From an uncultured Thermodesulfobacteriota bacterium (GTDB lineage: Bacteria; Desulfobacterota; WTBG01; CAIYCZ01): a stretch of 64,000 bases of DNA. The stretch covers positions 11,912 through 75,911 of the forward strand of contig CAZQKW010000009.1 of the NCBI GenBank assembly GCA_964594075.1. Reading direction: 5' to 3'. Positions 21,448 to 47,581 of the stretch are shown here, piece after piece. Under the pieces are notes generated by a model. The model ran no database searches. It saw only the letters and a program-made list of their open reading frames with translations, and was not told the DNA's origin. A program made the position numbers and the translations under genes. The number at the start of each line of letters is the position of its first letter. Within the stretch, counting starts at the first letter, position 1.

Positions 21448-21690
21448 TCACAGTTCAGTATCTTGAGCCGTGCCCTCTTCTTCGGCAAGTCTTTTTCTGC
21501 TCTTTTCGTCAAGTCGCACCTTGCCTGCTGCAATTTCCCGTAAGGCAATGACAACTAATTTATTATCGGGAGCATTAACCAGCGGTTTTGATCCTTTAAG
21601 AAGCTGTTTGAGACGCTGGTTTGCCATGTGAACAATCACAAACCGGTTGTTAACTCTTTTGAGACAATCTTCAATAGTTATTCGTGCCAT
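21448..21690 (-). CDS. rpoZ: DNA-directed RNA polymerase subunit omega
   Basis: [30 protein letters not shown] typical RpoZ N-terminus. Confidence 0.8.
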
Positions 21691-21867: not shown

Positions 21868-22056
21868 CTTCAGGACTTTCCCAAAAAATGTCTTATTGAT
21901 GGGGAAAAGAAGCGTCTGGGGTTTTTCTCTGCACCAACAATGTGCAAGGTGCTCATTAGTTGGTATCACGACCCCAAACTGTGTCTATCCTGCCGTGGGC
22001 AGGCAGCCAGTTGCGCCGTCGCCACCGGTGAGGTACGGGGGGGGACTGTGGTTACA
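21868..22056 (+). mobile_element. 5'-fragment (~190 nt) of a MITE-like element (copy A), beginning with the terminal repeat TTCAGGACTTT
   Basis: Collinear similarity to 23537..~23700 (e.g. cttcaggactttcccaaaaaatg... / gtctggggtttttctctgcaccaacaatgtgca... / ggcaggcagccag); ends where the dsbA-like gene 3' end begins. Confidence 0.5.
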
Positions 22057-22650
22057 TTAACCAAACTGCTGAATTGTTTCCCGAAAAACGGCGAACGGCT
22101 GGGCACCAACAATCACTTGGTGTTCGTTTATGACAAAGGTTGGCACGCAGCTAACATTATACCTGCGGCCGGCTTCTTGTGCTGCCCTGAGCCGTGGCGC
22201 ATAGCGCCCCTGACGCAGCGCATCCTGCAGTTCCTTAACGTCAAGCCCTGATGCAGCAGCAAGATCCTGTATTACATCGCTTTTGCCAATATCCCGTGCT
22301 TCAGTAAAGTAAGCTTGAAAAACTTTTGCAGAGAAAAAATCATATTTTCCCTGATCGCGCGCATATTCACTTGCTTCCAGTGCCATGCGGGAATTAGAAA
22401 GCACGGTCACCGTACCAAAGGCAATATTATAGGGCGCTCCCAGACGGCGGAGGTTATCATATGTGCGTTCCCAGTCAACTTCGGGAAGCCGCACTGCAAG
22501 AGGAACTCCTTCCGAAGGCGTTTCCGGATGAATTTCAAAGCTGATCCATTCATCTACAACCGGGAATTCCTTTTTCAGCGTATCGACAATACCCTTGCCG
22601 ATGTAGCAGAAGGGTCAAATGTAGTCTGAAAAAATTTTAACTGGTATCAC
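22057..22650 (-). CDS. DsbA/FrnE-like thiol-disulfide oxidoreductase, candidate selenoprotein (in-frame TGA at 22615..22617 read as Sec; GTG start at 22650)
   Basis: Listed ORF 22057..22494 is the C-terminal DsbA-like part; upstream in the same frame is GTG-IPVKIFSDYI-TGA-PFCYIGKG, i.e. the FrnE N-terminus (cf. MKIEIWSDVVCPWCYIGK) with TGA at the first Cys of CxxC; AGGGA before the GTG; tRNA-Sec present in window. Confidence 0.6.
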
Positions 22651-22865
22651 AGTCCCTGCTGTTCCCCGTTTATCTTTTTTCTGTACTTTTTAAAAAGTGC
22701 TTGTAGATTCTTTTCCGAGTCATGGACGGCGTTCTCATGGTCGGTCAACAACAGACGCATAATTTCTTCCGGCGGAATGTCTTTGCACTGGCCTATTAAT
22801 TCCTCAATGCGCTTCTCAATCTTGCGCCACAGGCAACTAACCGCGGTTGTATTCTTTTCATCCAT
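22647..22865 (-). CDS. hypothetical 72-aa protein translationally coupled (GTGA) to the DsbA-like gene
   Basis: Stop TGA overlaps the GTG start of the downstream dsbA-like gene; no recognisable domain. Confidence 0.35.
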   Translation of the reverse strand: MDEKNTTAVSCLWRKIEKRIEELIGQCKDIPPEEIMRLLLTDHENAVHDSEKNLQALFKKYRKKINGEQQGL

Positions 22866-23536: not shown

Positions 23537-23888
23537 AATTCAGGACTTTACCTAAAATGCTTTATTCCCGGGAATAAAGAACGGTCTGGAGGTTTTTATC
23601 AGCCACAACAATGCACGCATCCGCTGGCATCACGACCCCGGCACCGCGCATATTCGGCCCCGTGCAGGCAGCCAGCAGAGTCTTCGTCCCTGGTGATGCA
23701 CGGGGGTCTGGGGACGAAAGAACATAACGGCCCCTGCCGTGTTCCCGGCACGGACGGTTATGTTGTGGTCATAAGAGACCCCTCAGATGCGTGTGAGTTG
23801 ATGTTCCACATAATACCCATTGCGCGTTTGTGTTCTCATGCGGGTTGCCTGAATTTCAGTTTTCATTTTTTGACGAAAGTCCTGAATT
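23537..23888 (+). mobile_element. MITE-like non-autonomous element (copy B, intact) with 13-bp perfect terminal inverted repeats AATTCAGGACTTT / AAAGTCCTGAATT
   Basis: TIRs at 23537..23549 and 23876..23888; internal region shared with 21868..22056 (5' part) and reverse-complement of ~43060..43420 (3' part); internal hairpins 23682..23719 and 23721..23766. Confidence 0.6.
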
Positions 23889-43059: not shown

Positions 43060-43420
43060 TCGTCTCAATATCTAAATAGGAAAAATAAACCTGTCAAGGA
43101 AAAATCCAGAAGGACGTTCCCCAAAATGTTCCCATGAAATTCAGGTAAACTACATGAGAACCCAAAAAATCAATCACATAAAAGGGAAATGAAAAGCACC
43201 GGCACATGGGGATTTTTATCGCCACAACACAACCGTCCGTGCCAGGAACACGGCAGGTGCCGTTATGTTCTTTCGTCACCAGCCCCCGTGCATCACCGGT
43301 GACGAAGACTCTGCTGGCTGTCTGCACATTGCAAAATATTTTTGTGGGAATGTTTTAAAAAACCAGCACGGGTATTTTTTAAATACTTAATGATACATTA
43401 AATAATAAGTGATTCATGCA
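43060..43420 (-). mobile_element. degenerate MITE-like element (copy C), reverse orientation, ending ~30-60 nt upstream of the E2-like gene
   Basis: Reverse complement of ~43215..43335 is ~90% identical (by eye, ~110 nt) to 23671..23780; flanking parts align with indels; TIRs degenerate. Confidence 0.45.
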
Positions 43421-46409: not shown

Positions 46410-46507
46410 GGAAGTGGACAGGGCACTGGTGGCCCTCCTGGACTTCAAATCCAGTGGGAGGCGTGAGCAACGTCTCCGGTGGGTTCGATTCCCATGCACT
46501 TCCGCCA
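46410..46507 (+). tRNA. selC: tRNA-Sec (anticodon TCA), CCA encoded
   Basis: 98 nt; anticodon arm CTGGA-CTTCAAA-TCCAG (UCA); long variable arm GGAGGCG-TGAGCAA-CGTCTCC; T-arm GGTTCGATTCC; G discriminator + CCA; closely parallels E. coli selC (GGAAG...CTTCCGCCA); TATAAT ~30 nt upstream. Confidence 0.85.
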
Positions 46508-46588
46508 TTTTATAGCAAAAAGCTTTTAGCCATCAGCTTAGAAAGCTTGGGCTGATAGCGGAAAGCTCACCACAAACGGAAATTGATT

Positions 46589-47581
46589 ATGACAAAAGGA
46601 CGGATATTCAGCGGTATTCAGCCAACCGGTATCATTCATCTCGGCAATTATGTGGGCGCCATACAGCAGTGGGTTAAGCTTATGCATGATTACGACTGCA
46701 TTTACTGTATCGTGGACTATCATGCGATTACTATTGAATATGATAGGCAGACGTTGCGGGACAATATTATGGAGGCTGGGGTAACGCTTATTGCCTGCGG
46801 CATTGATCCTGAACGCTGCACGCTGTTTGTTCAGTCGCAGGTGCCGGAGCATACAGAACTGGCCTGGATTTTTAACTGTATCACCCCGATAGGGGATCTT
46901 GAACGGATGACACAATTCAAGGAAAAATCCGCGCAGCACCGCGAGCATATAAATATGGGATTGCTGGACTACCCAGTTTTGCAGGCTGCGGACATTCTTA
47001 TTTATAAGGCCGGATTTGTCCCGGTCGGCGAAGATCAGGTGCAGCACATAGAATTGACGCGCAGGACTGCACGACGGTTTAATAATCGGTTTGGAGAGAC
47101 ATTTCCCGAACCACAAGAGATACTCACGCCCACATCGCGAATCATGGGAACAGACGGCAAAACCAAAATGTCAAAATCATTGAATAATTATATCGGGATA
47201 CTTGAACCGCCGGACGTAATCTGGGAAAAGCTGAGAACTTCGGTCACCGACGAGAATCGCAAGCGCCGTAACGATCCGGGGAATCCTGATATCTGCAACC
47301 TTTTTACCATCCATAAGGTATTTTCAGCGCCGGAAGATATCGCACGAATTAATCGCGCCTGCAGAACCGCGGAGATTGGCTGCATTGAATGCAAGAAAAT
47401 TCTTTTTAATTATTTGATGGCCCACCTTGAGCCTATTCAGCAAAGCGCGGCAAAGCTCCGTGATAAACCTGAACTGGTTATTGATGCACTTGATGAAGGC
47501 GCGCGTCGGTGCAGAGAAATGGCAGCCCACGTGATGGATGAAGTGCGGGTAAAAGTGGGACTGTTGCCTTGCACCAAATAA
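46589..47581 (+). CDS. trpS: tryptophan--tRNA ligase
   Basis: Class I motifs (GIQPTGIIHLGNY HIGH-like, KMSKS). Confidence 0.9.
   Translation: MTKGRIFSGIQPTGIIHLGNYVGAIQQWVKLMHDYDCIYCIVDYHAITIEYDRQTLRDNIMEAGVTLIACGIDPERCTLFVQSQVPEHTELAWIFNCITPIGDLERMTQFKEKSAQHREHINMGLLDYPVLQAADILIYKAGFVPVGEDQVQHIELTRRTARRFNNRFGETFPEPQEILTPTSRIMGTDGKTKMSKSLNNYIGILEPPDVIWEKLRTSVTDENRKRRNDPGNPDICNLFTIHKVFSAPEDIARINRACRTAEIGCIECKKILFNYLMAHLEPIQQSAAKLRDKPELVIDALDEGARRCREMAAHVMDEVRVKVGLLPCTK

Follow-up and report, generated by a model that had tools for sequence, protein, structure and literature searches.

An in-frame TGA at the active site of a DsbA/FrnE-like gene as a predicted selenocysteine codon in an uncultured Thermodesulfobacteriota bacterium

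In a stretch of 64,000 nucleotides from an uncultured Thermodesulfobacteriota bacterium (contig CAZQKW010000009.1; the whole 64-kb stretch is here called the window, and all coordinates are positions in it), the minus strand from 22650 to 22057 carries, with a probability of roughly 93%, one gene for a cytoplasmic thiol-disulfide oxidoreductase of 197 residues that belongs to the FrnE subgroup of the DsbA family and has a predicted selenocysteine (Sec) nucleophile in a U12-P-F-C15 motif. The direct support for this comes from the reading frame, the protein domain, the pairing of Sec with Cys in homologues, the conservation of the TGA codon, the constraint acting at the RNA level on a hairpin downstream of it, a gene for tRNA-Sec and the fold of a close homologue. 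The gene is a mis-annotated member of the known DsbA-like selenoprotein family and not a new kind of selenoprotein. The observation, first made in an earlier sequence-only reading of the window, is not novel, as DsbA-like selenoproteins (COG2761, UxxC) have been catalogued since 2005 (PMC1088965, PMC1794560, PMC5029168, PMC13188914). The DsbA-like protein (COG2761) with its UXXC motif was reported from the Sargasso Sea as a new selenoprotein family with a predicted selenocysteine insertion sequence (SECIS) element (Table 3 in Zhang, Fomenko and Gladyshev, 2005; PMC1088965), and it was later described in Anaeromyxobacter dehalogenans, Desulfovibrio desulfuricans and Desulfotomaculum reducens (Zhang et al., 2006; PMC1794560). 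A subsequent survey counted 45 DsbA-like selenoproteins in 41 organisms (Peng et al., 2016; PMC5029168), and a review from 2026 lists them as "DsbA-like protein form 1, PF01323, UxxC" (PMC13188914). The window gene shares with this family the PF01323 domain, a predicted Sec at the start of UxxC, a SECIS within the open reading frame (ORF) directly after the UGA, the existence of Cys-form homologues and the occurrence in deltaproteobacteria and Firmicutes. Nothing essential differs; this copy belongs to the genome of an uncultured deltaproteobacterium-like organism, where it is annotated only as a fragment of 145 amino acids.

The predicted full-length coding sequence (22057..22650, minus strand) starts with a GTG at 22650 and comprises 197 codons followed by a TAA (22059..22057). 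Translation in this frame gives VIPVKIFSDYI*PFCYIGKGIVDTLKKEFPVVDEWISFEIHPETPSEGVPLAVRLPEV...QQFG*, which can also be excerpted as VIPVKIFSDYI*PFCYIGKGIVDTLKK...QQFG*, and the sole internal stop is the TGA at 22617..22615, i.e., codon 12. If a Cys is placed at the TGA, the Pfam profile DSBA (PF01323) aligns to residues 4-194 over profile positions 2-191 of 191 (E 1.6e-29); the domain thus spans the TGA and is complete only if this codon is read through. The best sequence match in the PDB is FrnE of D. radiodurans (5cnw/5cp1; E 5.4e-19, residues 2-185), in which IRVDIWSDIACPWCYIGK is aligned to IPVKIFSDYI-U-PFCYIGK of the window protein with the TGA opposite the first Cys of the CPWC motif. In Cys-form homologues, the codon at this site likewise encodes the first Cys of CPFC or CPWC, and by this Sec/Cys pairing the UGA of codon 12 (22615..22617, minus strand) is predicted to encode the Sec that opens the U-P-F-C redox motif. 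The sequence-only reading had placed an in-frame TGA at these positions at the first, nucleophilic Cys of a CxxC motif behind an FrnE-like N-terminus, and it had regarded the listed ORF 22057..22494 as only the C-terminal part of the protein; translation and homologue alignment, including that to the FrnE CPWC, confirm the former, and the extension of the DSBA profile across the TGA to residue 4 confirms the latter.

Two further positions of the predicted active site are conserved. The codon of the predicted resolving Cys15 of the UxxC motif (UGC; 22606..22608, minus strand) is UGY in 74/74 sequences, and C15 is invariant among the aligned full-length homologues. Pro170 (22141..22143, minus strand), the cis-Pro of the active-site loop of the thioredoxin fold (V-P-T-F), is invariant in two homologue alignments. 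With position 12 being a UGA, C15 and C168 are the only Cys residues of the window protein. Codon 168 (22147..22149, minus strand) is a TGC located two residues before cis-Pro170. This Cys is absent from all aligned relatives, which show Gly, Ala, Ser or a Cys-free sequence at the position (SGVPTF compared to SCVPTF in the window), even P0003 with its identity of 92%. Cys168 may represent a polymorphism of the strain or provide an additional thiol in the vicinity of Sec.

An AlphaFold2 model was made of P0001, a homologue with 74% identity that carries a Trp at position 12 (pLDDT 95.4), and in this model position 12 is predicted to directly precede a helix formed by residues 13-28. A Foldseek search of the PDB with the P0001 model resulted in FrnE (5co3/5cnw) as the first match (TM 0.90, rmsd 1.8 A, 31% identity), followed by S. 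coelicolor SCO1869 and then by kappa-class glutathione S-transferases, HCCA isomerases and YjbH, with the periplasmic DsbAs far behind. As the best sequence and structure matches in the PDB are FrnE and SCO1869, the protein belongs to the FrnE-type subgroup and not to another DsbA subgroup. Strand beta-1 starts at residue 2 in the FrnE alignment as well as in the P0001 model, and this leaves no room for a signal peptide.

D. radiodurans FrnE (DR_0659; PDB 5cnw, 5co3, 5cp1) is a cytoplasmic disulfide reductase/isomerase, with which the window protein shares strand beta-1 followed by the motif C/U-P-(W/F)-C-Y-I-G-K and the lack of a signal peptide. However, the window protein has a predicted Sec where FrnE has Cys and ends at residue 197 without the C-terminal CxxxxC tail (residues 239-244) that was proposed to regenerate the active site of D. 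radiodurans FrnE (PMC8945050); the FrnE proteins of S. roseofulvus and D. maricopensis likewise have no such tail. The thioredoxin fold with an inserted helical domain, the CxxC-type motif and the cis-Pro loop are also found in periplasmic DsbA of the E. coli type, but here the similarity is distant (E about 1e-6, TM 0.55-0.65) and the signal peptide is missing from the window protein. A function as periplasmic DsbA oxidase was rejected in view of the absent signal peptide and because no DsbB-like partner was found nearby. The lack of both signal peptide and CxxxxC tail suggests that the product is probably a cytoplasmic reductase or isomerase that depends on an external reductant, and by analogy to its family it most likely operates through a Sec12-Cys15 selenenylsulfide cycle. 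In the folded protein, Sec12 would be positioned at the N-terminus of helix alpha-1 facing the cis-Pro170 loop; it would attack substrate disulfides and subsequently cycle via a selenenylsulfide with Cys15.

The signal for Sec insertion is predicted to lie directly within the coding sequence. For the comparison with relatives, 80 species-representative genome loci were fetched and the motif was located in 79 of these. The predicted bacterial SECIS hairpin AUCGGCAA-GGGUA-UUGUCGAU (22582..22602, minus strand) is 21 nt long and begins 12 nt after the UGA; its stem is formed by 22602..22595 with 22589..22582 and its loop by 22594..22590. If the U of the UGA is numbered as 1, in the sequence UGA CCC UUC UGC UAC AUC GGC AAG GGU AUU GUC GAU the hairpin extends from A16 to U36. 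All its dimensions lie within the published limits of the bSECIS model of Zhang and Gladyshev, as quoted in the legend of Figure 2 of PMC13188914: an apical loop of 5 nt (allowed 3-9 nt), an upper stem of 7-8 bp (allowed 4-16 bp), GG at loop positions 1 and 2 (at least one G), a spacing between UGA and loop of 20 nt (allowed 16-37 nt) and a minimum free energy (MFE) of -8.6 kcal/mol (allowed <= -7.5 kcal/mol). This energy was obtained for the hairpin folded alone (22 nt), for which none of 200 shuffled sequences folded as well (z -5.2). The hairpin is also contained in the MFE fold of its 76-nt context; the stability of the 76-nt and 40-nt folds compared to shuffled sequences is not significant (z -0.6 and -1.0), and significance is thus restricted to the isolated hairpin.

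The seven pairs from 17-35 to 23-29 show standard pairing in 97-100% of 72 distinct Sec-form sequences, the closing pair 16-36 being the only one of the eight that is not conserved. Where the stem varies, single changes compatible with wobble pairing are observed, and three pairs, among them 18-34 and 22-30, have changes on both sides. As the stem is nearly invariant, the main support for the hairpin comes from constraint on synonymous sites and not from covariation. The third codon positions 18, 21, 30 and 33 are occupied by C in 71/74, C in 74/74, U in 72/74 and C in 73/74 sequences, whereas the neighbouring third positions 6, 12, 27, 36 and 39 vary freely. In a gene-wide test of 70 codon columns with a conserved amino acid and a degeneracy of three-fold or higher, the four lowest codon entropies were those of the stem codons Ile17, Gly18, Ile21 and Val22 (0-0.23 bit), the next value being 0.99 and the median 1.73. 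Moreover, the stem is broken in 7 of 13 distinct Cys forms compared to 3 of 68 Sec forms (Fisher p = 5e-5, calculated for related sequences). The more divergent Cys forms (loci L029, L062, L073, L075, L093) have lost the hairpin, whereas it is intact and nearly the same as in the Sec forms in the Smithella-like Cys forms with TGC or TGT (L024, L086, L088, L089, L090), which suggests that the latter are recent Sec-to-Cys conversions that retain a "fossil" SECIS. A mutual-information search for an extension of the lower stem revealed no covariation. Compared to the bacterial SECIS consensus, the element is therefore a minimal hairpin in which no conserved lower stem or bulge was detected, and its sequence is nearly invariant across phyla instead of being conserved in structure only. 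Rfam searches at the gathering threshold or at E <= 1 gave only chance-level matches in the vicinity of the gene.

The sequence-only reading had put forward another structure immediately 3' of the TGA, CCCUU-(13 nt)-AAGGG, as a possible SECIS-like hairpin. It can indeed be drawn in the sequence; as a SECIS it was rejected, as its loop size and its distance between UGA and loop are outside of the bSECIS limits, and its sole free pair (6-24) is unpaired in 28 of the 72 distinct sequences tested. An extended form (pairs 3-7/23-27 and 10-13/19-22) was rejected as well, having a loop devoid of G at a distance of 10 nt from the UGA. Both forms were examined in the 72 sequences and are largely paired there, but this pairing is mostly forced by the codons for Pro, Phe, Cys, Gly and Lys, and the free pair 6-24 is common to both. 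The comparison of these sequences supports the assignment of the 22602..22582 hairpin as the probable SECIS and suggests that selection does not maintain the alternative fold, which may form transiently or may compete with the SECIS hairpin.

The tRNA required for Sec decoding is encoded in the window. As the sequence-only reading had indicated, a tRNA-Sec gene (selC) with the anticodon UCA is located at 46410..46507 on the plus strand and was found both by ARAGORN (TCA) and by the Rfam model RF01852 (74 bits compared to a gathering score of 47; E 2.6e-13). It lies approximately 75 nt upstream of a gene for a class-I aminoacyl-tRNA synthetase of the Trp/Tyr type (46583..47581, plus strand), and neither selA nor selB nor selD adjoins it. 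According to established Sec biology, the hairpin 22602..22582 with its GGGUA loop would be bound by SelB-GTP-Sec-tRNASec while the ribosome is positioned at the UGA (22617..22615); the tRNA of this complex would be the one encoded at 46410..46507, and Sec would be inserted in place of termination.

Several observations weigh against this reading. Among the long ORFs of the window none is selA, selB or selD; a pair of ORFs of 609 and 467 amino acids is glmS/glmU and the remaining long ORFs are housekeeping genes. Covariation in the hairpin is sparse, with only four cells changed on both sides in an almost invariant stem, and as the aligned sequences are phylogenetically related, the p-values do not represent independent tests. 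Furthermore, the extended CCCU/AGGG fold is the MFE structure of the first 40 nt in the window and with -9.9 kcal/mol slightly more stable, and it is largely paired across the alignment, although nearly all of its positions are constrained by the amino acid sequence. The modelled fold is that of a homologue and not of the window protein itself, and Sec insertion, SelB binding, cellular location, substrates and catalytic direction are predictions based on sequence and family. The missing selA, selB and selD among these long ORFs leave some room for a low-level read-through of the UGA by near-cognate tRNAs for Cys or Trp without dedicated Sec insertion, in which the hairpin would slow down the ribosome or play another role. 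This is the best of the alternatives and yet very improbable, as the hairpin fits the geometry of a SelB-type SECIS with a G-rich loop of 5 nt located 20 nt after the UGA, a tRNA-Sec is present and the family is an established Sec/Cys family.

Even less probable is that the 145-residue product starting at the GTG at 22494, or at another internal start, is the real protein and that the 11 upstream codons are an untranslated leader. This product is what mechanical ORF calling yields, with only 22057..22494 (145 aa) being listed, and the public annotation likewise contains a 145-residue "DsbA family" fragment; it was annotated in this way because no NCBIfam model reaches its cut-off, the best one being an unrelated (seleno)lipoprotein model with 35 bits compared to a required 190. 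Many database homologues are annotated correspondingly. In a protein search that resulted in 933 homologues, the best 120 cluster representatives were classified at the Sec site: 29 of these have the Cys form ...SDYICPFCYIGKG..., 44 have the Trp form ...SDYIWPFCYIGKG... and 47 are N-terminally truncated with various internal starts downstream of the motif. The truncated entries derive from the same genes, interrupted at the TGA; their start codons lie at different internal sites that are not homologous to one another (products of 145, 162 and 174-187 aa), which is expected for artefacts of gene callers. However, a protein with an internal start would lack strand beta-1, the redox motif and helix alpha-1, whereas the alignments to FrnE and to the DSBA profile already begin at residues 2-4. 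The 11 codons 5' of the TGA show a coding signature with codon positions 1 and 2 fixed and position 3 variable (the third base of the Ser codon is C in 53, A in 9, G in 7 and T in 5 sequences), and the peptide KIFSDYI-x-PFCYIGKG is conserved in its amino acids while the synonymous sites vary. Moreover, the GTG start is found at the same position in close relatives, and the homologue P0001 begins at the same residue.

The TGA itself is conserved. Codon 12 is a TGA in 73/79 of the species-representative loci and TGC or TGT in 6/79, with the window likewise having TGA; as the 80 loci were ordered by how similar they are to a Sec-form query, the dominance of Sec in these counts is possibly overstated. 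TGA-form loci were found in Thermodesulfobacteriota, i.e., in deltaproteobacteria of the Smithella, Syntrophaceae and Desulfomonile type, in Bacillota such as Alicyclobacillus, Tumebacillus, Ferroacidibacillus, Pseudalkalibacillus and others, and also in Armatimonadota and Planctomycetota. Five contigs from independent assemblies (ENA ERZ4756917; Logan ERR6058144 and ERR6564811; NCBI GCA_900174595.1 and GCA_900175145.1), with amino acid identities of 79-92%, contain the identical TGA, GTG start and downstream hairpin, and they have in common the gene order RNR, NlpC/P60, transketolase, GYD, orf72, DsbA-like, rpoZ, SIS ... recA. The TGA shared by five independent assemblies excludes a sequencing error or a private nonsense mutation. 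An error at 22615..22617 and Cys codons in close relatives had been named by the sequence-only reading as observations that would refute it; the close relatives have TGA.

It is thus hardly credible that the gene is a pseudogene or the product of an assembly error, in which a Cys codon would have been turned into TGA by a nonsense mutation or a wrong base call and no functional full-length protein would be made. A single base change from TGC or TGT to TGA would be sufficient for this, and the existing annotation covers only the C-terminal ORF of 145 amino acids; the recurrence of the TGA in the species representatives and the five related contigs, the coding-type conservation kept on both sides of it and the constrained hairpin 3' of it, which decays where the codon is Cys, all speak against it. 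A genome-wide reassignment of TGA to Trp or Gly (codes 4 or 25), which would place W or G at this position and to which the W in 44 of the 120 homologue clusters might point, has a negligible probability, as TGA is the terminator of 10/32 window ORFs of >=250 codons including recA and transketolase (tkt), whose products match profiles end to end and which show that TGA is a normal stop and the standard code is used in the window, homologues carry Cys and never the genuine Trp codon TGG at this site, a dedicated tRNA-Sec is present, and the W entries, as we infer, result from metagenome gene callers that switch to code 4 on short contigs and translate the TGA accordingly. A scan of the window revealed no other convincing TGA-interrupted gene. 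The proposal of a DsbA/FrnE-like selenoprotein that is split by ORF calling is therefore upheld by the Sec/Cys pairing, the TGA in relatives, the coding conservation, the use of TGA as stop and the tRNA-Sec.

A broader evolutionary scenario is only tentative and rather doubtful as a whole. In it, the FrnE-like subclade would ancestrally and almost exclusively depend on Sec, as is seen in the nearest species representatives, and the gene together with its 21-nt SECIS cassette would have spread by horizontal transfer across at least four phyla; the Cys forms that keep the hairpin would be recent conversions, and orf72 would be a coupled partner in the lineage of the window.

This orf72 is a 72-codon ORF directly upstream of the DsbA-like gene (22647..22865, minus strand), whose TGA stop (22649..22647) overlaps with the GTG start (22650..22648) in the sequence GTGA (22650..22647). 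The overlap is shared by the loci L081-L085. The orf72 protein is encoded directly upstream of the DsbA-like gene in L081-L085 with 62-87% identity and in L001 and L002 with 55-57% identity, and it has no match in Pfam or NCBIfam. A weak Shine-Dalgarno-like AGGGA, already pointed out in the sequence-only reading, is present at 22653..22657 (minus strand), only 2 nt before the GTG, and GCAGGGAC-N-GTG is kept in L081-L085. For a canonical ribosome-binding site this distance would be short, so that coupling to orf72 could be an alternative; orf72 may accordingly be a translationally coupled partner. Clustering of the flanking ORFs across the 80 loci revealed no conserved neighbour, the sole large cluster being an artefact of antisense ORFs.

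Downstream of the selenoprotein gene lies rpoZ (21448..21690, minus strand; 80 codons), which encodes the omega subunit of RNA polymerase (TIGR00690, E 3.6e-17), is set apart from its neighbours on either side. The two intergenic regions measure 366 and 377 nt, which is unusually long, and they are conserved in L081 and L082 with 88-93% identity. A repeat of approximately 170 nt occurs at 21869..22041 and 23539..23706 (both minus strand), with a partial copy at 43283..43328 (plus strand). Having 71% identity and one orientation, it flanks the GYD-orf72-dsbA block, and each copy is located upstream, in sense, of a gene, namely rpoZ, GYD and a NAD_binding_4 gene. Both flanking copies are also present in L081 and L082. 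The first copy folds with -58 kcal/mol (z -2.4), and the repeat has no match in Rfam; it could be a repeated leader or small RNA, or an insertion scar.

As a summary, the finding adds little to the biology, as it represents one further member of a selenoprotein family that has been known for two decades. A residual, modest interest lies in the near-exclusive use of Sec in the subclade, the invariance of the SECIS across phyla, the overlapping orf72 and the flanking repeat. For annotation it is of more direct use, as most database entries have a wrong catalytic residue or none at all and AUCGGCAA-GGGNA-UUGUCGA is a convenient nucleotide signature to find and correct DsbA-like Sec genes. Moreover, the conserved minimal SECIS would offer a natural set of sequences on which the requirements for its recognition by SelB could be cleanly tested.

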